A stretch of DNA of 64,000 bases from a virus (taxonomy: Duplodnaviria; Caudoviricetes). Each line of letters opens with the position of its first letter. Positions within the stretch are counted from its first letter, which is position 1. Positions 7,445 to 45,500 of this stretch are shown here, piece after piece. Where the stretch lies: positions 1 to 64,000 of the IMG/VR virus record IMGVR_UViG_3300035498_000404, one strand, 5' to 3'. Both the position numbers and the translations under genes were made by a program. Under the pieces are notes generated by a model. That model did no database searches. It was not told where the DNA came from and worked only from the letters and a program-made list of their open reading frames with translations.

Positions 7445-7714
7445 ATTAACGAAGAATTTGAAAAGGCTTGGTAGATGATATATTTAAAATATCCAGAACT
7501 CATTGGAAAACTTCAACTCATAAATAATATAGATGAAGTCAAAAATGATGATTCTATCTATATTATATATAAAAATTATAATTTGTCAAGCGAAATATAT
7601 GCAAATCTTTATGTATATATAGTAAATGAGCTTGAAGACCTAGATGTAATGTTAGATTTCATAACTAAAAATGACATTTTAGGAGGAAAAGAAGATTGTC
7701 AAAAAATAAAGTAA
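7445..7714 (+). CDS. Hypothetical protein (start ATT 7445 with TAG readthrough, or ATG 7475)
   Basis: GAGGTGA RBS lies before ATT 7445, which is in frame through TAG 7472 with the ORF-track ORF. Confidence 0.55.
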
Positions 7715-10700
7715 ATCTTTTTTACATACTAAAATTAAACACTTCAAAAATAATTGAAAGTGATTTGTCTGTTGAAACAGACTTTAAGACATCTAAGAAT
7801 TCAGGAGAAATTGTTGCTTTAGGAGATAATCAAATTCTAAAGTTCATAAGAAAGATTAAAGAAGTAGATTATAGTCCTGATATTATAAAAGATTTATATA
7901 CTAAAAGAAATGAACTTAAACGACAAGAAAAATGTGATACCCAAGAGATAATCAAAGTACAAAATCTTATTAATAAAACTTTATTTGTACCAGATTTACT
8001 TATTGTAAAAACTGATACTACTAAAAAAGATTATAAGTATATTTGTAAAAATGGTTTTTCTGTAAAAATTTCAATTGATGATGTTGTTTATGATATAAAA
8101 TATAAAAGACTTTGTGCTGGTGCTGGTCAACTTAGAAGAAATTCGGCATTTTTTGTGAACGAAGAATTATATGATAGACTTGAACAGATTATGATGTGTG
8201 GACTTACCAAGTCTAAAATTGGCAAAATTAATCTAGCAAAGTTTAGTGCTTATTTTTCTCTTTATGGGTCAGCCACTAACCAAGTGTCTACTCCAAATAT
8301 TTGTGTTGTAAAAGACTTTGAATATCCTCTAAAAGACCAGAAAGTTGACTGGGTATATACTAATGAGGATGGCGATATTGACATCGAAGAAAGAAACATT
8401 GATTTTAATATGAATGCTTTTGACGGCGCTGGCATGATTAGTCCTACTATGGCCGCTATATGGCAATCTGATTTAGGATTGGATTATCTTCCTTCGTCTT
8501 TTATTATTCGCGCCCCATTTATTAAAGGTCTTGTTTCTGTCTTTGATTTTCATAAATTTGCCAAAGAAGTTGCTCATAAAGATACTATTACAGATTTATA
8601 TGGAGAAGAATGGGAAATTGATAAAATTGATGTAATATTAACATCAAGTCAATTTAAAATGTACAAAAAATACGAAAGTTGGAATAAATACGTTTTTTAT
8701 TTTAGAAAATATGGGCATAGATTTGGAGTTGCCAGAGTTAATAAAAAAGAGAGCGACTTTGTTACACCATTAAATTATCAATATATTCAAAGTAATAATT
8801 TTACAGAAGAATCCATTAAACAGTTGGCGCAACCAACAGTTGAATGGATTGACAATGTTCTAAAATGTGACCCTTTATATGCTTCCTTACTTTTAGTAGG
8901 TTGTCATGAAGATAAAACCATTGAAGAAATAGAGAATAGCACAGAATCAGTTTTTGGCAAATGTTTGTTGTATAATTTGGATATTCTAAATGATGATTAC
9001 AATAGGAAAAAAGTTAGAGATATAGCACAAAAGAAAATTGACCAAGCTAAAATTGGCAAACTCTATGTTGAGGGGTCTTATGATTTTGTAATACCTGATT
9101 TATATGCAATGGCTGAACACGCATTTGGAATGGAAGTAAAGGGGCTTCTACCAGCCAAATGTATGTATTCCAGACGTTGGGTCGAAAAGGGCGCTACTAG
9201 GGTTTCTACTCAACGTAGTCCGCTTGTTGCTCCTGCTGAAAATCAAGTAATGAACATTTATTGTGATGATAAATGTAAAGAATGGTTTAAATATATTGTT
9301 TGGGGCAATATATATAGTATTTGGGATTTATCAATAATATCGCAATCAGACGCTAGAAATAGTTGGCGTCTCTAAATTGGGCAAAATCGGTGAAGCCTAA
9401 GTTATTAATAATATGGTAATACCGAGGTAATTTAATAGATTACGAATAGGCTATTAAATACCGTAACGCATAGGTGGTGAATAAATATAATCCACCCACG
9501 AGTGTCTGACAATTCTTTTTTAGAATTGAAAATATATGCTGGGCTTATAGGAAACTATAAGAATTTTGAGATAAAAAGCTCAAAAGACAACAAAAACTGG
9601 ACTTTGACGGTAAATTATATTGCCGTGATTAAACCTCTCTAACTGCGGGAAACTCTTTAGAGGTGAATATACCAAGGCATAATAGTAATATATATGTTGG
9701 CAAATCTAATTAATTTGGTATGGTAAAAAGTATTCACATTAGACAATCCGCAACCAAATATCCTTTTAGGATAGAGGCTCAACGACCATCCAGAAATGGA
9801 GTAGGATAAAAGTTTATCCGAAATGGGAGGCGCTATAAAGCGAAGATATGGTCTATTCTTATATGAGAATATAAGTTGTTTTTAAACAAACAGAGTCAGA
9901 TTAACGACCTGACTAACTATAAAGGATATAGTCCTAACTACTGATAATAAATATTTAATAGACGCTATTAATGAAACATTGCCAGTTATTACTTATGAAA
10001 AGACGAAAGTAAAAGAACAGCGGTTGAATTTTAATAGTTTTCCGACTTGGGATGTAAAAAGTTTTGATAGTCCAATTGGAGGAATTACTAATATAGCCAG
10101 TAATTTATATGCTATGTTGGCTAATTTTGAAGAAGGAACAAGAGAATATGAAGAAATCTCAAAAAGAATAAAAATTATGAGGCTGTTTCAAGGAAATTAA
10201 CATTGTAGTTTCGGTATATAGTAATATATATATAAATAAATTCGGTGAACTCAGAAATCTGAGGTGTGCAGATAAAACTGTGCTAACAGGGAAAATCTAA
10301 ACGGAAACCGCATGATAACCCTGTGCCAAATCAAAATAGTGATATTTTGAAAGGTGCAACGACTAAGACATACATTCTATTTTAGAATATGAAGTCTGTA
10401 CTATTACGGTGCAAATCCGTATAGGAAGTGCCGAACATCCTATTTATTAGGATGAAGATATAGTCTAATCCCTAATATAAATAAGTGGAAACACTGGGTA
10501 TAAATGGCAATAGATGATAAGTTGCCTTTAGCAGTAATGTTAAAGTAAAATTCGGTGAACCTACAAATGTAGGGTGTGCGTATATTACGTGCTAACAGAG
10601 AAAGTCTAAGTAGTTTTATATGATAACTCTGTGCCAAGCAAGAATAGTGATATTCTTGACGGTGAAACGAGCAGAACATACGTTCTTATCTTTTAGAATA

Positions 10701-11695
10701 AGAATATGAAGTTCGTATTCTTGATGTGAAATTCGTCAGGAAGAAGTGCCGAACTCCTAAATTATATTTTAGGATGAAGATGTGCTCTAGTCCCCTAGTA
10801 AATATCGGGAAACCGAGGGTATTAACGAGATAAAACTAAAGGGGTTACATATTCGCCCCCTCCTTCTCATTGGTCTAAGAAACAAAAATACATTCAAATT
10901 CCAGACGGAGCAACGCAGGAAGAAATAGATAGTATAACAGAACAAAACAAAGAGATTCAATTTCAAAATAATATATGTTGTAGTAAAAAGACTTATTTCT
11001 TTGGATATGTATATCCTCAGAAAATGAGAGAATATAAGCAACACAAGAAAGCATATAACAATATGTGTTATATAAAATTTGGAATGGGAATCAATGATTT
11101 AATTAGAATCGTCGATAAAAGTCCAGAGCAAAAAAAGTTATTAAAGGAATATTACCAGTATTCTCCTTTATTTAATTCTAAATGCTCTATGAATATTTTG
11201 GCAAAATATATTGAAGATTTTGATTTCAAATATAAATTTGCCAAGAACACACATTCATTTGACTATACTTGTCTAATGTCTTGTGACGAATCTGAAATTA
11301 ATAAAGTAACATTATCCGAAGTAAGAACCTTATTAAAAAGATATACTAAGTTAAGTAATGATATTACCGTAAACTTATCTTATTTAAGACGGTATCTCGA
11401 TGCCGATGAAGCAGAGGAAACTCGCGGATTTATGTTTGATGAACTGTATAATGACTTCTTTGTTGATGTTGTTAGAATCCTTGGTAATGAGCAGACAGCA
11501 GTAAATTATGTTGTTTATGCTTGTTATGGATTTAAAAATACTTATCAAAAGTCATTATTATGGTATTGTCTTGGAGATTATGTTGCAAAAAATGTAAAGA
11601 ATAATTCAAAACATAGATATAAAATAGTTCAAAATGACAATGGAAAGCCGTATTTTGGTAAAAATTATACACTTATTGATGAATATAAGGAGTAA
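7696..11695 (+). CDS. Single-subunit double-psi-barrel DNA-dependent RNA polymerase (SPbeta YonO-like), 5 exons: 7696-9354, 9600-9611, 9925-10197, 10507-10511, 10828-11695; about 938 aa
   Basis: AFDGAGMISP, IRAPFIKG and QRSPL motifs; splicing restores SDA|DFDG|DIVLTTDN (catalytic DxDGD) and QGN|AI|DKTKG; exon lengths sum to 2817 nt, in frame. Confidence 0.9.
9355..9599 (+). mobile_element. Group I intron RNAP-I1 (no ORF)
   Basis: P1 AGACGCU/GGCGUCU; P7 GCAUA/UAUGC; ends in G. Confidence 0.88.
9612..9924 (+). mobile_element. Group I intron RNAP-I2 (no ORF)
   Basis: P1 ACGGU/GCCGU; AACUGCGGGAA and AAUCCGCAAC core elements; P7 GACCAU/AUGGUC; ends in G. Confidence 0.88.
10198..10506 (+). mobile_element. 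Group I intron RNAP-I3 (no ORF)
   Basis: P1 GAAAU/GUUUC; P7 GACUA/UAGUC; ends in G. Confidence 0.85.
10512..10827 (+). mobile_element. Group I intron RNAP-I4 (no ORF), sequence relative of RNAP-I3
   Basis: P1 GGCAAU/GUUGCC; P7 GAGCA/UGCUC; shares AAATTCGGTGAAC, GTGCTAACAG and GGAAGTGCCGAAC-like blocks with I3. Confidence 0.85.
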
Positions 11696-11697
11696 AA

Positions 11698-12447
11698 ATG
11701 GTTTTTGAAGAGCGACCAGAGGTTGCTGAAAGACTTCTAAGAAAAGAAAGATTGACCGCTAAACGTGCTTTCTCCGAAGCGGCACAGATAATACGTTATC
11801 TTCGCTTCCTTAATTATAGCGAAGACCAGATTATGGATGTTGTTATCCCTCTTCTGGCCGAACTATATAAAGTGCCTAGTAGAGATGATATGGTTAAATG
11901 TTACAAGTCTTGCAGCAAAGTAGCAGATAGACTTATTCCTATTAGGACTGACCCTGTTAGGGTGTCTATTAGACAAATAGACGAGATTAGAAAGATAGGC
12001 AATCCAGATATAGAGAGATTTATATTTACGGCTTTATGTATATACAACTATTATAAGGTTGCCAAAACAGAGTATGTTGTGAAAGTTTCCGAAGCTCAAA
12101 AGGCTTCTGGAATCCGTGGCGGTAAGAAACTTGCTAATATGTCAGCATTATTTCCATATGTTGATATTAGAATTCTAAAGAATGAAGCATACGTGATGTT
12201 TAGTCCTGAATTTTTGGCAATGAATGAACCTGAGTATTTAGAAATAAATAATTGTGTTAATATTTCATATTATTACGAAGAATTTATTGGACGAGGTAAA
12301 TATATTCACTGCAAAAATTGCGGAGCTATTGAATTAAGAAACAGTAAGGCTAGAAAATTCTGTATGTTGTGTTCTGACCAAAATCACAAAAAGTGGCGTA
12401 GAAGAAGTAAAAACCCTGAAACTTTTATTGGAGAACGCTTGTGGTGA
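11698..12447 (+). CDS. Hypothetical protein with a C-terminal zinc ribbon (possible RNAP accessory factor)
   Basis: CKNC...CMLC; directly follows the RNAP gene. Confidence 0.75.
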   Translation: MVFEERPEVAERLLRKERLTAKRAFSEAAQIIRYLRFLNYSEDQIMDVVIPLLAELYKVPSRDDMVKCYKSCSKVADRLIPIRTDPVRVSIRQIDEIRKIGNPDIERFIFTALCIYNYYKVAKTEYVVKVSEAQKASGIRGGKKLANMSALFPYVDIRILKNEAYVMFSPEFLAMNEPEYLEINNCVNISYYYEEFIGRGKYIHCKNCGAIELRNSKARKFCMLCSDQNHKKWRRRSKNPETFIGERLW

Positions 12448-12580
12448 GGTTAATAAAATTGCATGAAACCCAGTAAATATGGTATTATTAACGATTATAC
12501 CGAAATTTTATTCAATGATAATATTCAAGCTATTTACTTGGTTTTATCAATAAAAGAATTAAAGGAGTAAATTAAATTAA

Positions 12581-12757
12581 ATGATTCAAATTAGTAGAGA
12601 AGATTTTGAAAAGTTACGTAAGGCCAAGCTCATTCGTAATGGGGTAAATAAGAATTACCACATTTTTAACAAGGATAAGCGTGGTAGTCGTAAGAAGTAT
12701 TATATTGTTGAGGAAAAGGCGATTCTTGACTTCCTCGGTCTAACCCCTGAATATTAA
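12581..12757 (+). CDS. Small basic hypothetical protein (58 aa)
   Basis: AAGGAG RBS; MIQISREDFEKLRK...RKKYYIVEE; below the ORF-track length cutoff. Confidence 0.65.
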   Translation: MIQISREDFEKLRKAKLIRNGVNKNYHIFNKDKRGSRKKYYIVEEKAILDFLGLTPEY

Positions 12758-12774
12758 TTGTTGGAGGTGGCCGA

Positions 12775-13356
12775 ATGGATAACGAATTTTATCCCAAGTA
12801 CCTTGACAGAGAAAGAATGTTATCTCAACTCGCATTTCAGAATCGTAAAGTTATGATTTACGATGAAGTTACTGATGATTCTATGTTTAGAGCGCAATTT
12901 GAATTAATGCGAATTCGCGAGAATGATATTAAACTTGGCACAAAGAAGCCAATTGAAATTTATATCAATTCTTATGGCGGTAGCGTGTATGATGGCTTGT
13001 CTCTAATTTCTCTTATCGAGAGCATGAAGGACGAGGGCTACGAGATTACTACTATTAATATGGGCTATGCTATTAGTATGGGCTTTATTATTTCTCTTGT
13101 GGGAACACATAGAAAGGCTTATAGATATGCTAATTATATGTTCCATGATATTAGTACGTATTCTCATGGCAAATTGGAAACCATCAAACAAGATGTTGTT
13201 CAAGCTGAAAATCTCAGAAACATGACTACTTCTATCATCTTAAAATACACTTCACTTACTGAAGATTATATCAATCATGTGTTTGAAACAAAGACCGATA
13301 AGTATTTTAATGCTGATGAAGCACTGGAACTGAATATTTGTGACGAGGTGATTTAA
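12775..13356 (+). CDS. clpP: ClpP-family protease
   Basis: YINSYGGSVYDG, AISMG (catalytic Ser), MFHD (His), DKYFNADEALE. Confidence 0.9.
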   Translation: MDNEFYPKYLDRERMLSQLAFQNRKVMIYDEVTDDSMFRAQFELMRIRENDIKLGTKKPIEIYINSYGGSVYDGLSLISLIESMKDEGYEITTINMGYAISMGFIISLVGTHRKAYRYANYMFHDISTYSHGKLETIKQDVVQAENLRNMTTSIILKYTSLTEDYINHVFETKTDKYFNADEALELNICDEVI

Positions 13357-13357
13357 C

Positions 13358-13681
13358 ATGGGTATTTCTAAGAAAGTTTCTACTATTTCTAATAAAAAGT
13401 GCGGTTGTAGTGCCGCTCCTGTTGCCGAATCTAAAAAGGAAACACTCAAAGTTGATATTGATATGGACGCGTTCCAAAAGGGCGTTTCCGAGGCTTCAAA
13501 TCTCGCTGGCAAGATTGCCGCTTTAATCTCTGTTGGTATCAGCGGAGAGATGGCTCTTTCTTACTTTGCCACTCTGGCAGAGAACGAGAGTGTGGCCGAG
13601 GCCAACGAAAAGGTTGCCAAGATTACAGCAGATGCTCAAATTGTCTGTTCCAAGATTGAGGCAGCACAGGAAGATTTTTAA
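13358..13681 (+). CDS. Hypothetical protein
   Basis: GAGGTG RBS; codon usage like the highly expressed genes. Confidence 0.75.
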   Translation: MGISKKVSTISNKKCGCSAAPVAESKKETLKVDIDMDAFQKGVSEASNLAGKIAALISVGISGEMALSYFATLAENESVAEANEKVAKITADAQIVCSKIEAAQEDF

Positions 13682-13709
13682 ATTTCTTCAAAAAAATTTT
13701 AAAAAGTGC

Positions 13710-13738
13710 TTGACAAATAGAAATGTTTGTGATATAAT
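13710..13738 (+). promoter_or_regulatory. sigmaA-type promoter for HU and the tRNA cluster
   Basis: TTGACA-17-TG-A-TATAAT. Confidence 0.85.
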
Positions 13739-13802
13739 ATAGACATAAGGAACGAAGAGTTCCTTAATGATGAATCAAATGAATTAAAGGAGAAATAATT
13801 AT

Positions 13803-14072
13803 ATGTCTAGTGTTGAATTTGCTAAGACCTTTGCCGCTAATGCGGACATTACTCAGAAGTTTGCGAAGGAGCTGCTTGCCACTCTGGAATCTACGATTAA
13901 GACCTCGCTGGAAAGTGGCACGAAGTTTACTGTCGCTGGTGTGACTTTCAATGTAAAGGACATTGAAGCTCGTACTGGTCGCAATCCTTCGACTGGTGAA
14001 TCTATTGAAATTCCCGCGCATAAGCGCGTTGTTGTTAAGGCTACTAAGAGCCTCAAGGATTCTGTGAACTAA
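13803..14072 (+). CDS. hup: HU-family histone-like DNA-binding protein
   Basis: ARTGRNPSTGESIEIPA...KSLKDSV signature. Confidence 0.95.
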   Translation: MSSVEFAKTFAANADITQKFAKELLATLESTIKTSLESGTKFTVAGVTFNVKDIEARTGRNPSTGESIEIPAHKRVVVKATKSLKDSVN

Positions 14073-14404: not shown

Positions 14405-14478
14405 AGAGAATATAGTGTAACAGTAACACGCGGACTTTGGGAGTCTGAGAAGCGGGGCAGCACCGATATTTTCTACCA
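14405..14478 (+). tRNA. tRNA-Pro(UGG)
   Basis: CGGAC-TTTGGGA-GTCTG anticodon arm; 3' ACCA; T loop GGCAGCA. Confidence 0.7.
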
Positions 14479-14552
14479 CATCATGCGAGATTTTGAGCGC
14501 TTCTCCAAAATCAACGCAGTAGTGCAATTTGTTATTTGTGTACTAGATGTTT

Positions 14553-14616
14553 TATAGACAGTTACAGCAAACTAATAAAAAATTGTTAATGGGAATACAA
14601 TCTAAAAACTGTCTAT
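14553..14616 (+). ncRNA. Putative small RNA, TAGAC..TACAGCAA..GTCTA motif copy 1
   Basis: Closing helix ATAGACAGTT/AACTGTCTAT followed by ACAGCAAA; motif repeated at 14778-14873. Confidence 0.45.
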
Positions 14617-14623
14617 TTTATAT

Positions 14624-14697
14624 GGTCGATTAGATTAGATGGATAAATCGTCGCCCTGTCACGGCGAAGACCACGAGTTCGATTCTCGTATTGACCG
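14624..14697 (+). tRNA. tRNA-Asp(GUC)
   Basis: TCGCC-CTGTCAC-GGCGA; GTTCGATT T loop; acceptor GGTCGAT/ATTGACC. Confidence 0.9.
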
Positions 14698-14777
14698 CTT
14701 TTATTTTGAGTCCCACAGCCGATGTTGGCGTTAGCGCGAACCGCAAGACGAGCTGTTTATAGTTGCCACAAACTTAT

Positions 14778-14873
14778 TAGACCCGTACAGCAAAATTATA
14801 AAACAAGATTATAATGATATTTATGGTACTGAGTAATTCTTTTAGAATAATTCACAAAAAAACATTGGGTCTA
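14778..14873 (+). ncRNA. Putative small RNA, TAGAC..TACAGCAA..GTCTA motif copy 2
   Basis: TAGACCC/GGGTCTA closing helix with compensatory changes relative to copy 1; same TACAGCAAA. Confidence 0.45.
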
Positions 14874-14881
14874 TTTTATAT

Positions 14882-14954
14882 GCTAGTATAGCTCAATTGG
14901 CAGAGCCACTAATTTGTAATTAGAAGGTTGTTGGTTCGATTCCGACTATTAGCT
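14882..14954 (+). tRNA. tRNA-Thr(UGU)
   Basis: GCTAGTA/TATTAGC; AGCTCAATTGGCAGAGC D arm; loop TTTGTAA; GGTTCGATTCC. Confidence 0.9.
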
Positions 14955-14964
14955 TTTTTTATAT

Positions 14965-15049
14965 GCGAGTGTGGTGGAATTGTCAGACACGCAGCGTTTA
15001 GGCCGCTGTTTCGTAAGAAGTGAGAGTTAGAGTCTCTCCATTCGCACCA
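14965..15049 (+). tRNA. tRNA-Leu(UAG)
   Basis: CAGCG-TTTAGGC-CGCTG; long variable arm; 3' ACCA. Confidence 0.85.
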
Positions 15050-15063
15050 AAGGAATTATATAT

Positions 15064-15151
15064 GGCAGTGTGGCAGAGTGAATTAATGCAGATGTCTTGA
15101 AAACATCCGAGTGTAACAGCTCCGAAGGTTTGAATCCTTCCACTGTCGCCA
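15064..15151 (+). tRNA. tRNA-Ser(UGA)
   Basis: GATGT-CTTGAAA-ACATC; long variable arm; 3' GCCA. Confidence 0.9.
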
Positions 15152-18119: not shown

Positions 18120-21100
18120 GAAAAGCCACAAAGTTTATATTAGAAGAAGAAAAAAAGTAAATATGTCAAAGACAAAGCGGTTTATGGACAACCTTGAAGC
18201 GTGGACAGCTTATTGGAGAAGCAATCCCCATAGATTTGCAACTGATTATTTAGGATTTAGACTGTATGATTTCCAGAAAGTCCTTTTATATCAAATGTTC
18301 GCACATCCTAGTTTTGTATACGTGGCCTCGCGGGGTCTCGCCAAATCAACGCTTGCCTTGATATTTGCTACTATATATTGTATTTTATATCCGGGAACTA
18401 CAATTGTTATTGTTGCTCCCACTAGAGGACAGTCAACTAGATTTGTTAAGAATATTCAAAATCTAGCTCGTGGCCGTCCTAATATAATGTCTGAAATTAA
18501 ATCAGTTAAAACTGGTTTAAATGAAAGTCGAATAGACTTCTGGAATGATTCGGCTATTGTAACGCTTCCGTACAGTGAAAATGCTCTCGGTGAATAACAG
18601 TATTTATTACTAAAACGCCGCTATCAATGGTAACATTGGTATGATAATTGCAGTAAAAAACTGGAAACCTGAAATGGTAATCAGAGGTGAAGATAATTCT
18701 AAGAATTATCAGCCGCAACGCATAGATGGTGAAAAGATATAATCCATCCAAGAGACTGCAACTGCCAAATATTTGGTAGAAAAGATATGCTGAACTAATG
18801 AGAAAAAAATCATTAGAATTATAGGATAAAAAGCCTATAAGATAACAAATTGGTTAGAGCCAATATTCTTATAGTTGACGAATTCGTTCGTACCGAAAAG
18901 GAAGTTATAAGCCGTGTATTCGTTCCTATGCTTTCTTCTCCTAGAAGCCCAGATTATACTGATTTAACTTCTAAAGAAAGAGAGGCATTACCAGAAGAAC
19001 CAAATAGACAATTATATTTGTCCTCTATTAGAGGCGCAGATGAATGGTCTTATGCCAAGTTCTTACAATATATAGACGAAATGACCAATGGCAATACAGA
19101 ATATACAACTGTTGCTTTACCTTATAATATAGGTGTAAAAAACAGATATATTTCTCGTGCTATTGTTCAACAGTCTTTTAAAGAAAATCAAGATTCTCTT
19201 GAAATGCTATACGCAGAATATACGTGTAGACCAGAGAGAGGTTTAAACAATTCTTTCTACCGTTATGCTGTATTGCAGGAACGGAGAGAAGAAGCTCGTG
19301 CTATGGTGGCTATGAGCGATTTTGAATATTTACAATACAAAGGCGATAAATCTAAGTTTCCATTTTACCAAGAAAAATTGCCGAATGAAATTAGAATTTT
19401 AGCAATGGACGTTGCCTTGGTAGAATCCGCAAAGAACGATTGTAATGTTAGTAATAACATACACAGTCCGCTGCATTTAGAAATTATGCAGTGTATTTCT
19501 CTGAACTGCTGGAAACCCCTTATAGCTTGTATGCTACAACATACGAATGAAAAATGTCGAAGTGTGAATGCTTAAAAAATTACAGGATTGGGAAATCAGC
19601 AACTAAGCCCCGAATAGGGGAAAGCTCAACGACCAATAGTTGAAATACTTATAGGGCAAGTGCCCGAAGTGGAGAACACCTAAGTGTAATTTGTTTTAAG
19701 GTAAATTATATATGGTGAATGATATGGTCTATGCTTATATGAAAATATAAGAAAAATTATTCATGATACAAATAAAAGATAAGGACACTGGAGTAGCTGC
19801 CTTTTTAATGCCCCTAACATTAAATTACTTATCTTTTATTTTTTTATATATATTACACCGTTAGGGAGGTGAGAATATATGATAGTTGGATTTAAAATGG
19901 AAATCCATCCAAATGGATTTCAACAAGAAATATTAAGAGAATATTGCAAAACATATCATAATATGTGGAATTTTTTAGTTGCAAAATATAAAGATAACTT
20001 ACCAGTTGTAAGCAAATATGGAATAAAAGATTTCGATACGAACGATTTAATAAATGAATTTGGGAGTGCTATACCAAAAAGAATCGTTTTGGGTGTTATA
20101 AAAGAATATTCCAGAGCAGTACAAATGGCATATAATAAAGTCGTAAACAGACCTAAGTTTCATAAATACAATCCGAATAAACAATCATTCTACATTGCCA
20201 GCATGACTTATTCTGTAACAAATGGCCGTGCTGTAATCCCATCTTTAGGAAGAGGACGGGAGAATATGTCGTACAGAATTCCATTAGACATAGAATATCT
20301 AAATAAATATAATATCAAAGAAATTATAGAGCCAAGATTTACTTTTTATAAAGGTAAATGGTATATTTCTGGCAGTTATAAAAAATAGGATGTTCAAAAA
20401 TCTAATAAAGAATTTATAGGGCTTGATTGGGGTATAAAAAATTTTATGACTAGTTCTAATGGCGACTTAATAAATTATCCAAATAATGTAACTAGAGAAT
20501 ATTACCGAATAAGAAAAATACAATCACTTCTGGATAAGAAAAAAAGAAAATCTAACAACTACAACAAATTATATAAAAAACTCTGTAACGCATATATAAG
20601 ATTAGAAAACTTAAAAAATGATTTTATAGAAAAAGAAACCACATCTCTATGTAAAAATAATAGCATTGGAGTTGAAGATTTGGAAAACTTAATGCAGTCC
20701 AACAAAATTATAAGAAGACAGAATTTTATATGTCCAAGAAAAAGATTTGTAGACGCATTAATGTGGAAATGTGAAAAATTTGGAAGTTATTTTGTTGTTG
20801 TTAATCCGGCTTATACCTCTCAAAAATGTTGTATATGTGGCAAAATACATAAATTAACATTAAGAGATAGAATAATGATTTGTGATTGTGGTAATATTAT
20901 TGACCGTGATATTAATGCCGCTATTAATATTAAAAATGACGCAATTGCGTCAGTGGGTATTTGTTGTACCTATTAAAAGTCCATAACATGGATAATTCTT
21001 TATATATTTAACGAATGTATAAAGTAATAAAACAGAATACGGCGTTTTGGGTTTTGCGTTTAATTCCTAATGGAAATAAGTATAAAAAGATATTTGCTTA

Positions 21101-22028
21101 TGCAGAGAGTATGAATGGTATTAATTCATTACTACAAACCCTGAGAGCAAAGCAATTGTTTTATGAATTTGACTGCGACTATTTTGTAATAGACGGTGGT
21201 GGCGTAGAAACTGCGCTCCTATTTGGTGACAAATAGGTGATAAATGGGTGTAAAAAACTGGAATTCTGAGAGGAAAATCAGAGCGGAAGTTTGTATTTAA
21301 AAGTATAAACACGCACAACGCATACGAATTGAACCTCGTGAAGAGAATATAATATTCGCAAGAGACACCCACTTCTTTTAGAATAAGAAGAAAAGATATG
21401 CTGAACTTACAGGAATACAACTGTAAGAATTGTGGGATAAAAAGCCCACAAGATAACAAAAGTTGTCGGGAGATTTAAAAAATCTCCCGATTTCTATTGA
21501 GGACAAGGAATTGTAGATATTAGCACTGTTGAGACAGAAGACCCAGTTCGTGGGGAAATTTATCCGGCGTGGACTGTTGCTAATTCTGATGACCTTAAAA
21601 ATATTCATAGAACAATTTCTGAAAATGCTGTACCAATTATGGTGTCTGTTAAAACGGGCATTGCAGATAAAAGTAGAATGCTAGTGCATTCTCGTGATGA
21701 AATGGCAACTAATAATATTTCTTTGCTTGTAGATATGCAAGATGGAATAGATTACTTAAATCAGAACTTTGACTTCTATAAAGTTTCTGATTAGGATTTA
21801 AGAAACAGAGTTTTAGCTCCTTATGCTCAAACTTCTGCTTTTATGAACGAAGCTATTAACTTGAAACAAGTTAGCGTTCAGGGTAGAATTAGTGCAGAAG
21901 AAAAATCAGGCAGACGTAAAGACCGCGTTATGAGCTTGGTTTATGCGCTAGATTATGCCAAATAGCTTGAAGATGGATTAAGTGTCCAGCAGAATAATAG
22001 CTGGGAAGATTATATATTTTTCTCATAA
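18112..22028 (+). CDS. terL: Terminase large subunit, 4 exons: 18112-18591, 18853-19440, 21036-21205, 21500-22028; TAG at 21792 and 21963; about 588 aa
   Basis: Walker A ASRGLAKS; splicing restores ALG|VRANILIVDE, MDVAL..SAKND|NTAF and IDGGGV|GQGIVD; C-terminal RKDRVMSL. Confidence 0.92.
18592..18852 (+). mobile_element. Group I intron TerL-I1 (no ORF)
   Basis: P1 CGGU/GCCG; P7 GCAUA/UAUGC; ends in G; same family as RNAP-I1 and TerL-I3. Confidence 0.88.
19441..21035 (+). mobile_element. Group I intron TerL-I2 carrying tnpB (IStron-like, no transposase)
   Basis: P1 GAU-UGU/ACA-GUC; AACUGCUGGAAAC and AAUCAGCAAC core; P7 GACCA/UGGUC; ORF lies downstream of P7'; ends AACAG. Confidence 0.88.
19879..20976 (+). 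CDS. tnpB: TnpB RNA-guided endonuclease (365 aa via TAG 20386-20388)
   Basis: Readthrough joins the two ORFs in frame and supplies RuvC-I IGLDWGIK; RuvC-II IGVEDL; zinc finger TSQKCCICG..CDCG; RuvC-III DRDINAAINI. Confidence 0.9.
21206..21499 (+). mobile_element. Group I intron TerL-I3 (no ORF)
   Basis: P1 GCGU/GCGC; P7 GCAUA/UAUGC; ends in G. Confidence 0.88.
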
Positions 22029-39564: not shown

Positions 39565-42500
39565 ATGGCTGAAAGTATAATATTTAATATAGGTATTGGT
39601 ATTGACGATACTGAAGTAAGACAGGATTTAACAGAAGTTACAAAACAAATACAAGAAGTTTTAAATACAGATTTAAAATTTAATATTAACGCGAATAATA
39701 TTGAGGAATTACAACAGCAAGTAGCTAATCTTGGCGGGCAATTAAATATAGTAAGAGACTCTGTAACTGGTCTTGCCACTGGATTTTCTGTAACGGCAAC
39801 CTCTATAACTGGGCAACTTGTAAATGTGGCTGGTAGTTTTTCAAATTTAAAAACTAGCGCTGATTCATATGTGGCATCTTTAAGTAGTATGCACGACCAA
39901 ATTTCAGGTCAAACAGGGGAACAAAAGGCAATAGCTCAAATTCAATAGGAGTATATTAGTTTATTACAAAAAGAAACTGACATTAAAGAAAAACTAGCTG
40001 TTGCAGTTCAAAATCAAGACACTCAACAAGTAAGTTCTTTGGCAAATCAGCTTGATAAAACTTAGACGTTAATGAACTATGATGCAGAACGACTACAACA
40101 AATACAGGGTATGTCAAATGCTGCAACTACTTTTAACGGTGTTTATGAGCAGATATTTGCAACCACATAGCAATTAGCTAACAGAAATAATGATGCAGAT
40201 GCGTTTTTAGGAACTGATGCTTCTCAAAGAATAATTGATGTTTCTACTAATCTTTCCCAGTTAGATAATACATTACAAGAATATTATTCTCTAAATCAAC
40301 AAGTTTAGAATACTGCTCCGGGAGAATATTGGGATTTATTAGACGCAAAATTAAAACAATTGCAACCAGAATATGATGCTGTTAAAACCAGTATGGAATC
40401 TTTGGGTGTTGTGTTTGCGAATGGTCAGGCTCAATATACTGGGACAGCAGAAGCAGTTCAACAATTAGTTGAAAGATATAATGAGTTAGAGCAACAACAA
40501 AAGGAAAACCAAGCTTAGAAAAATCAAGCTGCTACATATAAAGAAATTACAGATGCGGTTAAGGCTTATTATAAAGCGCTAACTGACGTTAAGAAATCTA
40601 ATAGCGTAGAAGGCTCTGAAACATACAAAGTATTACAGCAAAATTTAACCGCTGCTGCCAATGCTACTGTAACACTTAATGGGAAAACAACTCAATTACA
40701 AGATGTATTTTCTGCTCTTGGTATTACTATATCAAATTATGGTTCAAACTTTACTGCTGCATACAGTGGTAAAAGCCAAGAAATCCAAAAGATTGTTGAT
40801 TTAATTAATCAACAAAGTCAGGCTTACGCCAAGCTTAATGCTCAAAAAGCAGACCAAGCTTCTGATACTGCATTAATTGAAAGTGCCGTAGCGGCATATA
40901 AAAAGTATAGAGACCAATTAGATGTTGTTTATAAATTAAAGAAAAGTGGGAACACTGACTTTACAAGCAACCTAAAAGAAGAAGAAGAACTCTTAAAGCA
41001 GCTTAAAACTGCGTATGAACAAGAAGAACAAGCTCTTCTTAGTAACGGTCAAGAAGTACAGAAAAATACAACTTATAACCGTGATAAAAACCAAGTAACT
41101 AGAGACTCTATTCAGGCTCAAAAAGAGTTTGATTTAAGTTTAAATACAAATTCGCTACAAAATGCTATTGCCTAGACACTACAATACACTATTAGCTTGC
41201 AGGGCTTAAAGACTGCAATTAAAGAAGTTATAGATACAACTCTTGATTTGAACGAATCAATGACGCAAATTCAGCTTGTTACCCAACAAAATAATGATGA
41301 TGCTAAAGAATTAATTCAATCTTATTCAGAATTAGCTAAAAGTTTGGGTACTACAACTGCTGATATAGCTTCTGCAAGCGTTGAGTGGCTTTTTATTAGG
41401 TCACTATAAATCCATTTAACTGCGGGAAACCCCTTAGAGATTAACATACTAAAGGACGATAGAAATATACGTTCTGGCGAGAATAATTACCTCGGTATAG
41501 TAAAAACTGTTAATATTGGGCAATCCGCAACCAAGCCTCTAAAATAGAGGAAGGTTCATCGACTATCCCTTGGTTTCTAAAACGAAACAATAGGAGTACG
41601 GCCAATCGTTAAGGTGGGTGAAAATCCCTTAAATGGAAATGATGGATATTTTAAAGATATTTTAAAATTACTTGACAAAAAGTAATTTTTGTGATATAAT
41701 AGAATAAAGATATAGTCAATACTATGTAGAAATATATAGAAAATTCTGTTTACAGAATCTTTTGAAAAGTAACGATTTTCAGAAGTAATATAATAGACGG
41801 CAGGGCAACAGTATTGAGGAAACTAATGACTTAATTCAAGCGTCTGCAACGCTACAAGTCATTGGTAATATGGAAGCGTCGGATTCCGTAACAGCATTAA
41901 CAGCTTGATTTAGGCTGGGCATATAGTAATATATGCAATAATAAATTCTTTTAACTGCGGGAAACCTCTTAGAGATTAACATACTAAAATATAATAGGGA
42001 TATTATATTGGCGAGAATAATTACCTCGGTATAGTAAAAATTGTTAATATTGGACAATCCGCAACTAAGCACCAAGAACTGGTGAAAGCTCAACGACCAT
42101 CCCATAGGTTCTTTTCAGAACAACAGGAGTACGGCCAATCGTTAAGGTGGGTGAAAATCCCTTAAATGGAAATGGAGAATATCCTACTCTTAGGATAAAG
42201 ATATGGTCTTTTCTTATTAGAAATAATAAGGTGTTTATAAACACATATAAGATTAACGACCTTGTATAAAAATTAAAGGCTATCAACGGCTATGGATTAG
42301 AAGCTTCCGACGCAATGCAGATAGTAGACCAATTAACTACACTAGATTTGAAGTTTGCAGCTTCTTCCGGTGATATAGCGACAGCTCAACTATTAAGGGC
42401 TGGGTGTGCAGTAATGTACATAATAATAAATTCTTTTAACTGCGGGAACTTCCTTAGAGATTAACATACTAAAATATGATAGGAATATACATATTGGCGA

Positions 42501-45500
42501 GAATAATTACCTCGGTATAGTAAAAATTGTTAATATTGGACAATCCGCAACTAAGCACCAAGAACTGGTGAAAGCTCAACGACCATCCCATAGGTTCTTT
42601 TCAGAACAACAGGAGTACGGCCAATCGTTAAGGTGGGTGAAAATCCCTTAAATGGAAATGGAGAATATCCTAAAAATAATTATAAAAGACTTGACAAAAA
42701 GAAATAAATATGATATAATTACTGTTATAGGATAAAGATATGGTCTTTTCTTATTAGAAATAATAAGGTGTTTGTTTGTATTATGGAGATGAAAATGATT
42801 ATTTCAAAATTTGTAAATATAAGAATGGTTAGTCAAAATATTAAATATTATAGAGATTTGGGGTATGAATTTAATAACGGTGAAACAATTCCTATCAAAA
42901 TTGAAGATATTGGAAATGGAAATCGAGCATCCGTAAAGGTTAAATGTGACTATTGTGGGGATGAATATGAAGCACAATATGCAAATATTATGAATGGCAG
43001 AAAGATTTTAAACAAAGACGCTTGCAAGAAATGTGGGCATAAAAAGAGAGAAGAAATTTTGTTGCTTTTATACGGAGTAAAAAATCCTATGCAGTTGCAG
43101 GAAATAAAAAATAGGCAACAAGATTCATTGGAAGCTCATTACGGAGTGAGAGTTCCGGCAAAAAATAAAGATATTTCAAAAAAACAAGCAGAATCTTTTA
43201 AAAAATCTTATGGTATTGGTAGTGATGGATATGACGAGTATCAGACCAAACGAAGAAAAACCTGTATTGATAAATATAGCGTTGACAATGCCTCGAAATT
43301 AGAAGAATTTAAAGATAAAGCTGCGAAAACTTGTTTGGAAAAATATGGTGTAGAGCATCCATGTCAAAATCCAGACATTATGGAGAAATTTATAGAAACT
43401 TGCAATGAAAAATATGGTGTTGATTATTATTTGCTGACAAAGGATAAACAAATAAAAACCACAAAAACCTGTATGGATAAATATGGAGCAATAAATATTT
43501 CAAAAACTGATTATTGGAAAGAAAAGGTAAATAATTCAGTTATGGAAAGATATGGTACAAAATGGGTCGGAGAATCAAAAGAAATTCAAGATAAAATAAA
43601 GAAAACGAATATGGAAAGATATGGCGTTGAGTGCGTCTTTTCGTTGGAAGAAATTCGTTTAAAGTCAAGAAAAACTATGCTTGAAAAATATGGTTCAATA
43701 ATGCCCCAATGCGTTAGTTCTCAACAAAATTATATTCATAGTATATATGGTGGAGAATTAAATAAACAAATTGGAAAATATGTTGCTGACATTTTATTTA
43801 CAGATGAACGTATTGATTTTGAATATGACGGTGGAGGACACGATTTAAGTATTAGGCTTGGAGCTATATCTGAAAATAATTTTATAGACAAAGAAACAAT
43901 CAGGAATAATTATTTTATAAAAAATGGTTATAAAATTTTTAGAATTATTTCCAAAAAAGATAGATTACCAAACGATTCAATCCTTATCGAAATAAAAAAT
44001 AAAGCTTTTGAAGTTTTATTAAATACAGAAAATAATATTTATACTTATAATATAGATAATAACACAGAAGAATACAAACAAATCAATGTGGAATAACGAC
44101 CCACATTAAAAATTTATACTTTCTAAAGTTGCATCTGTGGCCTCACAATCCGGTGTTTCACTGGAAAAACTAGAATCAATTCTGGTTGTCACAGAAGACC
44201 AAACACAGCAATCGGCAGACACCATTAACAAAACAGTGGTGTATAAATCAATTCTAATATTTATGCGAAAATCCAGAGATGGACAACGCTTCGGAAGGTA
44301 AATTACCGCCGACAACGACTGAATGAATTGACCAAATTTATTTTGGATGCAACAGTCTGAACACATAATATAATCGAACAATGAAATATGTGAATAGGAG
44401 TCATTGGTAATCAGACCAATTAAAGAAGAACTTCTATCGCCTACTATAAAGTAGGTCACAAAAGTAACAGAATGTGGTAATGCTAAATGTTCTTGGCATG
44501 GCACATAGTAATATGTGCAATAATTAATCCCTTTAATTGCGGGAAACCCCTTAGAGATTAACATACTAAAATATAATAGGAATATTATATTGGCGAAAGT
44601 AACTATTTCGGTATAGTAAAAATTGTTAATATTGGGCAATCCGCAGCTAAGTGTTCAGAACGGACAAAAGTTCATCGACTATCCAATAGCTTTCAAATAA
44701 GCAACAGGAGTACGGCCAATTGTTTAGGTGAGTGAGAATCTCTTAAATGGAAATGGGGGACATCCTATTATTTAGGATGAAGATATAGTCAAAACTTGTT
44801 AGAAATAATAAGAACTTATATTAAAAATATAAATCATTGAAAGAATCTTATTTTTAATATAGGTTGCATAAAAATAACGAACTTATGTTAATTAATTGTG
44901 GAACAGTATTTTTGCCAGAATGTCGAAAATTGCTGCTGGTAAAGACCTTGAAGACACCGAGGTAACGCTAAATGATGTCGATAAGGTCTTAACCAAAATG
45001 AATATTAGTCTAAAGGATGAACAGGGTCAAATTCGTGACCTTGACGATGTTCTTGACGAAGTTGCAGGTCGTTGGGACACCTTTACGACAAATGAAAAGA
45101 ACCAAATTAGTACGGCTATCGCGGGCACACGACAAGCCAACTATTTTAAGGCCGCAATGGCCGACTGGGGAGAAGTTCTTGACGGTACGCAAATTGCATT
45201 AGACGCAAATGGTACGGCCACAGAGCGTATGGGTATTTATACCGAATCCCTAGGAGGTAAAATTAAGACCTTAAAGGCTACTTGGGAAGAATTTGTAGCC
45301 GATTTAAATTTGGACGATGTTATCTCTAATGTAATTAGTACAGCACAAAATCTATTAGAGATTTTTGATACTATAATAAATAAAAGCGGTGTTTTAAGTA
45401 CCGTAATTAAAGGAGTTCTTGTTGCACAAGGACTAAATATTTTATCTGGCGCTGTTGTAAAGGTTCTTGGTACACTAACTGGTAGTGGTGGATTATTAAG

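Follow-up and report, generated by a model that had tools for sequence, protein, structure and literature searches.

Short exons between neighbouring group I introns have been described in several systems. In Staphylococcus phage Twort, orf142 carries three group I introns, with an exon of 23 nucleotides (nt) between two similar IA2 introns, and exon skipping was reported (Landthaler & Shub 1999, as cited in PMC10136302). The same source cites the 23S rRNA of Coxiella burnetii, where two group I introns enclose a 34-nt exon (Hicks et al. 2011), and in phage phiNIT1 a small exon between two group I introns was found only by cDNA reads, its size not being stated in the available part of the source (PMC11878797). 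Among organelles, two group IB introns in the placozoan mitochondrial cox1 gene are separated by an exon of a single nucleotide (PMC5436844), and fungal mitochondrial genes contain small exons as well (PMC12308204). Phage RNA polymerase genes can likewise be invaded, as in PhiPA3, whose polymerase gene holds a mobile group I intron with an HNH endonuclease that attacks the PhiKZ gene (PMC11620839). YonO of SPbeta is a single-chain DNA-dependent RNA polymerase that transcribes the late genes (PMC5467207). Here, we analyzed a homologous polymerase gene in a 64,000-nt stretch of DNA (the window; positions 1 to 64,000 of the IMG/VR virus record IMGVR_UViG_3300035498_000404, Caudoviricetes). We conclude with high confidence that this YonO-type gene has been colonised by four presumably self-splicing group I introns devoid of open reading frames (ORFs), and that the micro-exons between them are by-products of crowding at homing hot spots rather than devices.

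The polymerase gene spans positions 7696-11695 of the plus strand and has the order E1-I1-E2-I2-E3-I3-E4-I4-E5, where E denotes exons and I the four group I introns. Our reading of it is built on this anatomy, on its colinearity with intron-less genes, on an allele lacking I4, on an RNA joining E1, E2 and E3, and on RNA circles of I2 and I4. E1 (7696-9354) has a TTG start codon with AGGAGG 9 nt upstream, yields Pfam and tblastn matches and ends with the residues S-D-A. I1 (9355-9599) has a P1 guide at 9365-9371 that forms 7 bp with 9348-9354, and a P10 segment (9361-9364) that forms 4 bp with the first bases of E2. E2 (9600-9611) comprises just 12 nt, in frame, coding for D-F-D-G. I2 (9612-9924) follows with its P1 guide at 9622-9626 and a P10 segment (9614-9621) forming 8 bp with the start of E3, a 273-nt exon (9925-10197) that ends with Q-G-N. 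In I3 (10198-10506) the P1 guide lies at 10208-10212, and the P10 segment (10202-10206, 5 bp) pairs with all five bases of E4. The five bases of E4 (10507-10511) make up an Ala codon and the first two positions of the next codon, which specifies the invariant Ile of the Q..IDK.KG motif. The P1 guide of I4 (10512-10827) is located at 10521-10526 and pairs with 10506-10511, that is, with E4 and the last G of I3; that I4 borrows this G had been proposed in an initial annotation of the sequence, and we confirm it. E5 (10828-11695, including the stop codon) supplies the last base of the Ile codon, followed by D-K-T-K-G. Accordingly, E4 plus base 10828 reads Ala-Ile and restores the frame of the ORF at 10826-11695. 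The intervening stretches I1 to I4 measure 245, 313, 309 and 316 nt, none of them with an ORF of useful length. All coordinates and letters of the initial annotation are present in the window sequence, and when the five exons were joined by script they gave 938 codons with a single, terminal stop, the 938-residue product being a YonO homologue. Of note, the spliced frame (7696-11695) contains no in-frame TAG.

Related genes without introns show the same reading in uninterrupted form. A scan of IMG/VR for related loci returned eleven, and in six of these (L004-L008 and L010; 67-78% protein identity) the gene is continuous. In all six, the sequences corresponding to E1 and E3 are separated by exactly 12 nt, and exactly 6 nt lie between the counterpart of E3 and the Asp codon in that of E5. 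Their products read SDADFDGDI (DNDGD in L008) and QGNAIDKTKG, as predicted; the initial annotation had staked its exon assignment on intron-less homologues reading DADFDGD and NAIDK at these positions, and this is what they contain. More distant sequences agree, in that E2 aligns with the DNDGD at 535-539 of YonO, the blastp alignment crosses the E1-E2-E3 joint unbroken, and PHROG 35857 aligns colinearly with E3 and E5, leaving between them a gap that matches E4 in size. As a side observation, in the otherwise intron-less locus L004:5925-8378 the longest ATG-started ORF has 817 codons, as compared to ~940 elsewhere, which may reflect a non-ATG start or an interrupted 5' part.

The closest relatives are two contigs from other samples, L003 and L013, which are 99% identical to the window. 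Both contain I1-E2-I2 as in the window, and this arrangement is thus found in three assemblies. At the point corresponding to window positions 10300-10312, their I3 contains a GIY-YIG endonuclease gene of 289 codons (L003:3199-4399), and I4 is missing, E4 being directly joined to E5 in the DNA. As regards the E4-E5 junction, L003 and L013 therefore represent an allele that is naturally in the 'spliced' state. Members of one phage species thus differ in the endonuclease gene of I3 as well as in the presence of I4 as a whole. The converse arrangement exists in L011 (~55% identical), which has an endonuclease-bearing intron exactly at the I4 site and none at the I3 site.

To obtain evidence at the RNA level, contigs from four animal-gut metatranscriptomes were mapped onto positions 7600-11800 of the window. 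One 151-nt contig from an RNA library (depth 2.2) consists, with no mismatch, of 9237-9354, the 12 letters of E2 and 21 nt starting at 9925, and reads as a spliced E1-E2-E3 junction. The joint of 9354, E2 and 9925 that the initial annotation had suggested looking for is thus seen in one RNA contig. A contig from another study joins 9924 back to 9612 and represents a full-length circle of the 313-nt I2; being exact, it fixes both ends of this intron. In a third contig (depth 9.3), 10827 is joined back to 10516, giving a circle of I4 minus its first 4 nt. Here, the last G of I4 attacked after a U located four bases into the intron. Circles of this type correspond to the classical circularisation of group I introns. 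Neither circle has a DNA explanation short of tandem duplications. We also considered whether I1, E2 and I2 form one intron or a twintron and rejected this possibility, given the RNA joint containing E2 and the circle of exactly I2.

The introns were assigned to group I with the Rfam covariance model RF00028 (family threshold 50 bits), which I3 and I2 exceeded with 68.4 and 58.5 bits, respectively. In all four introns, the 5' splice site follows a U paired with a guide G in P1, and the last intron base is a G. Nearest-neighbour energies of the P1 helices range from -2.9 to -10.3 kcal/mol, the latter value belonging to I1. I4 is 70% identical to I3, and both were placed in an alignment of five ORF-less family members, the consensus fold of which comprises 61 pairs, 33 of them with compensatory changes. 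P1 in this alignment varies in step with each intron's own 5' exon. Because RNAalifold cannot draw the pseudoknotted P7, which in group I introns harbors the G-binding site, this helix was examined separately and found to be paired in five of the five members, with two compensatory pairs in I4. According to these data, together with the intron-less relatives, the proposal of the initial annotation that four group I introns enclose a 12-nt exon, specifying D-F-D-G of the Mg-binding motif, and a 5-nt exon is borne out. I1 to I4 belong to at least three sequence families. The idea that I4 is a recent duplicate of I3 was rejected, as the two are only 70% identical and the 3' end of I4 is nearer to introns of other relatives. 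Among the relatives, an Rfam search of the endonuclease-bearing introns of L001, L011, L012 and L022 gave no match; these introns were recognised via their similarity to ORF-less members.

The encoded protein belongs to the two-barrel RNA polymerases. E1 matched the Pfam RdRP family PF05183 (E 4.9e-11) and, by tblastn, yonO of SPBc2 (E 9e-29), and the spliced product matched SPbeta YonO by blastp (E 3e-41, ~30% identity). A sequence search of the PDB with E1 gave no match, and Pfam gave no RdRP match at E 0.1 for the full-length homologue L008. The invariants described for two-barrel polymerases are the three Asp residues of DxDGD, an R..P motif, and an Asp and a Lys of the other barrel (PMC2919709). 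When the uninterrupted L008 protein was searched against 1.8 billion protein representatives, 1489 relatives were retrieved, and among 81 full-length representatives only 19 columns were invariant. These include D557, D559, D561, R510, P512, D246, K280 and K324 as well as I653, D654 and K657 (L008 numbering), and the spliced product of the window keeps every family-invariant residue. E2 thus encodes the first two of the three catalytic Asp residues of DFDGD, the third being the first codon of E3, and E4 comprises the codon before I653 plus two-thirds of the I653 codon. An AlphaFold model of uninterrupted L008 (pLDDT 93.3, pTM 0.90) places I653-D654 at the end of a 23-residue helix (633-655). 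Foldseek searches with this model returned plant RDR2 (1.8e-18), QDE-1 (~1e-13) and gp66 of phi14:2 (5e-5). The fold matches to RDR2 and QDE-1 and the blastp alignment substantiate the initial designation of the protein as YonO-like.

Homing endonucleases are known to target the most conserved DNA of essential genes. Across the family, at least eight distinct intron sites are found in the two motifs. In or at DxDGD, I1 precedes the codon of the first Asp, an intron of L024 follows this residue, introns of L001 and L009 follow the second Asp, and I2 comes after the Gly. Around the second motif, one intron of L009 lies two bases into the preceding codon, I3 in front of the Ala codon, I4 and introns of L011 and L009 inside the Ile codon, and those of Goe14 and L026 behind the Asp codon. 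Most of the relatives' introns contain GIY-YIG or HNH/NUMOD genes (L003, L011, L012, L001, L009, Goe14, L024, L026). At the residue level, the endonuclease-bearing introns of relatives, that of Bacillus phage Goe14 included, interrupt the reading at DSD|, DFD|GD, AT|A and ID|. Since relatives and alleles carry endonucleases at the same or adjacent sites, the introns of the window are best read as endonuclease-less derivatives. We thus envisage that mobile group I introns repeatedly invaded two invariant motifs, the Mg-binding DFDGD and Q..IDK.KG, arriving by endonuclease-mediated homing and later losing their endonuclease genes. The two micro-exons are what remained between neighbouring sites of insertion spaced by just 12 and 5 bases. 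Each intron should recognise its own 5' exon through the short P1 guide helix, and splicing of all four should yield the 938-residue frame. Simple homing does not account for the entry of a second intron at a distance of 5 bp from an existing one.

A further micro-exon of this kind is present in L009 (9066-9628; ~55-60% identity), where two introns of the same family follow each other in the interval from E3 to E5, enclosing a 7-nt exon at 9339-9345. The upstream intron is located 2 nt from the I3 site, is devoid of the usual P9 hairpins and ends 7 nt after P7. Taken together with the window, this 7-nt exon indicates that micro-exons arose at least twice. A spaced-pattern scan combining conserved 3' and 5' blocks found no other tandem introns of the I3/I4 family, the pattern being ill-suited to them, as the upstream 3' end is divergent in both known tandems.

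The initial annotation had predicted that exons of this size would be missed by gene callers, and database proteins comply. Among the 150 best family representatives, 28 (within P0005-P0148) are truncated calls ending at the two motifs, 19 of them stopping at 555-577 and 9 at 654-671. Behind such truncated calls, an endonuclease-type ORF and the rest of the gene were found downstream in two of the three contigs examined. A related observation comes from Bacillus phage vB_BsuS-Goe14 (OL580764.1, L022:3961-5266), where yonO is annotated as yonO_2 and yonO_1 with a 'hypothetical protein' between them. The interposed ORF is a GIY-YIG/NUMOD3 endonuclease within an I3/I4-family intron, whose insertion site follows the Asp codon in T-I-D and lies 4 nt downstream of that of I4; no intron is annotated in the record.

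Several observations weigh against the view that four functional introns crowd at homing sites. With RF00028, I1 reached 44.7 bits (E 1e-9), under the threshold of 50 bits, and I4 gave only a partial match of 20.8 bits. Energy calculation found no convincing P10 pairing for I4, and none of the four introns contains an endonuclease gene, homing being deduced from the relatives. The spliced E1-E2-E3 contig has a low depth and may be of DNA origin, since an RNA library can contain DNA and an unknown intron-less strain identical over the 151 nt could mimic a spliced transcript. No contig of the four metatranscriptomes covers the E3-E4-E5 junction, which is uninformative either way, and I3 is represented in RNA by internal pieces only. 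We infer that I3 is spliced in vivo and that E3, E4 and E5 are correctly joined. Moreover, the I3-E4-I4 arrangement rests on a single assembly, as exact 26-nt pattern scans of viral and metagenome contigs, with the window's own record excluded, found no second DNA copy of this junction. Some of these points would also fit a decaying gene, in which certain introns, such as I3 or I4 with its altered core, have lost the ability to splice and the polymerase gene is turning into a pseudogene. In I4, the J8/7-P7 letters deviate from the conserved ones and the 3' half does not match the Rfam model; I4 also lacks a clear P10, and no endonuclease genes remain in the introns. Against decay, I4 has kept its P7 helix despite failing the model, because two P7 pairs have changed in a compensatory manner, and the RNA circle ends exactly at its last G. 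Given in addition that the exons are intact, in frame and provided with all family-invariant residues, that E1-E2-E3 appears spliced in RNA, and that the genome is 97% complete with a single copy of the gene, we regard decay as very improbable. The tandem itself could alternatively be an assembly artefact, namely a chimera of an I3-bearing strain and a strain with an intron at the I4 site. Its presence in one assembly only, the occurrence of I3 alone in the sister strain and the ~70%-identical repeats shared by I3 and I4 would be in line with such an origin. At the join, however, the two alleles would have nothing in common but the 5-nt exon, too short an overlap for an assembler, and the I4 guide pairs with the last G of I3 plus E4, fitting a real neighbour. 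The distant relative L009 shows the same kind of tandem with a 7-nt exon, and I1-E2-I2 recurs in three assemblies. A chimera is therefore the least probable of the explanations considered, with next to no weight in our view.

The crowding of the introns might also be exploited by the phage. In this regulatory scenario, the close spacing of the introns would impose a splicing order or permit exons to be skipped, and would thereby time or tune the active polymerase and late transcription. While E2 has the length to accommodate both of its neighbours at once, with bases 1-4 engaged in P10 of I1 and bases 8-12 in P1 of I2, the five bases of E4 are all claimed by both P10 of I3 and P1 of I4, and these pairings are mutually exclusive. 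Nearest-neighbour energies for P1 of I4 are -8.0 kcal/mol with I3 in place and -4.3 kcal/mol after I3 is gone, as compared to -3.0 kcal/mol for P10 of I3. I4 would thus be expected to win E4 and leave first, whereupon I3 should see an ordinary 3' exon; until then, the last G of I3 is likely held by I4. The I4 guide is also able to pair with the end of E3 (-3.6 kcal/mol), and pairing of a downstream guide with an upstream exon is the skipping route described for engineered tandem introns (PMC10136302). Skipping of short exons between group I introns has been documented for Twort, Coxiella and phage SIOphi (PMC10136302, PMC11878797). Judging by the reading frame, skipping of E2 would delete two catalytic Asp residues in frame and skipping of E4 would shift the frame. 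In a stricter version, I3-E4-I4 would be a coupled unit, in which I4 captures E4 and the last G of I3 and must splice first, before I3 can finish; the yield of correct versus skipped mRNA would then be set by folding kinetics and exploited to delay or limit the polymerase. If true, a viral transcription programme would here be controlled, in nature, by group I splicing that is cooperative and obligatorily ordered, yet we consider such coupling unlikely. The initial annotation went further in taking ordered splicing to be implied, which the relatives do not bear out, as I3 occurs without I4 in L003 and an I4-site intron without I3 in L011, so that no splicing order is obligatory. Its second suggestion, that splicing gates late transcription, draws on the transcription of late genes by YonO in SPbeta (PMC5467207), and a late-gene role of the polymerase in the window phage would be presumed by analogy to SPbeta. 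The suggestion fares poorly against close relatives devoid of any of these introns and the presence or absence of I4 within one species, a distribution typical of selfish elements rather than of a conserved regulator. Exon-skipped joints were not seen among the RNA contigs, at very low depth. We therefore assign a regulatory role of the crowded introns a low probability and favour their reading as selfish elements at homing hot spots.

The genome of the window phage (~103 kb, from animal gut samples) contains an unusually large number of group I introns, which belong to several families. A single gene at 41361-44812 of the window contains four more introns recognised by Rfam, three of them 75-77% identical to I2. 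In this region, an intron follows a 10-nt stretch with a terminal U (44475-44484) and has a guide that pairs with the last 5 bases of the stretch, which fits a 10-nt exon. Paralogues of I1 are located at G000 75044-75261 on the minus strand (80% identity) and in the window at 18713-18849 (71%) and 21376-21461 (78%). The polymerase gene is followed, within 11689-14072, by a 252-residue ORF, a ClpP-like ORF (12751-13356) and an HU-like ORF (13788-14072), after which come five tRNA genes (14406-15148). In SPbeta, yonO is likewise followed by an HU-like gene (yonN), as is the polymerase gene in Enterocloster phage PMBT24.

The locus indicates that self-splicing introns in phages can pack as tightly as in organelles, and that the two most invariant motifs of a polymerase family act as intron hot spots, at which about one-fifth of the family's gene calls are cut. 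Many 'truncated' YonO-like proteins in catalogues are probably products of intact, intron-split genes, which matters for annotation and for metagenomic protein catalogues. The polymorphism within one species, with I4 and the I3 endonuclease gene present or absent, offers a snapshot of the cycle of intron gain and decay. Finally, I3-E4-I4 is a natural test bed in which two ribozymes share one five-base substrate, used upstream as P10 partner and downstream as P1 partner.

Compared to described systems, micro-exons between group I introns as such are already known from organelles, and phage genes with short exons have been reported. Our search found no published report of introns in yonO-type genes. 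SPbeta yonO, which shares with the window gene the homologous protein, the Asp motif and the downstream HU-like gene, has no intron, whereas yonO of Goe14 has one. The PhiPA3 system resembles the window in having a group I intron in a phage RNA polymerase gene, with a possible benefit in the competition between co-infecting phages; it differs in that a multisubunit polymerase harbors one intron with its own endonuclease, as opposed to four introns without any. The window gene shares with Twort orf142 the phage origin, the interruption by several introns of the self-splicing group I type and an internal exon of very small size between two related introns. In Twort, however, this exon has 23 nt, skipping was shown and the gene is structural, whereas the window exons of 12 and 5 nt belong to an RNA polymerase gene and the 5-nt exon is shorter than the P1 that uses it, such that P1 reaches into the upstream intron. 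The 3'-terminal 43 nt of I4 (10786-10828, the P9 region) match unannotated sequence of Twort-like Staphylococcus phages (LC648442.1, LC576631.1) with 95-98% identity, which suggests one intron family moving across distant Firmicute phages. In Coxiella, a bacterium, tandem group I introns likewise leave a short exon, though in the 23S rRNA rather than a coding gene, with 34 nt and with introns of different subgroups. In phiNIT1, a small exon lies between two phage group I introns as in the window, in other genes and another phage group. Closest in geometry is placozoan cox1, where a second group I intron likewise lies beside the first, inside the codon of a conserved residue, and where the exon was overlooked by annotation and proven by RNA reads; this case is organellar, with no evidence there of polymorphism within a species or of endonuclease-bearing alleles at the same sites. 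The claim of the initial annotation that such micro-exons are exceptional in prokaryotic systems consequently holds in degree, the shortest exons cited in PMC10136302 being the 23 nt of Twort and the 34 nt of Coxiella, and does not hold in kind, as organelles reach 1 nt (PMC5436844). The 12-, 7- and 5-nt exons are shorter than any we found cited for phages or bacteria. In sum, what is new relative to these systems are the extreme exon sizes for a phage, a P1 helix reaching into the neighbouring intron, the location in the catalytic motif of a polymerase, the family-wide hot spots and a polymorphic population displaying the steps.

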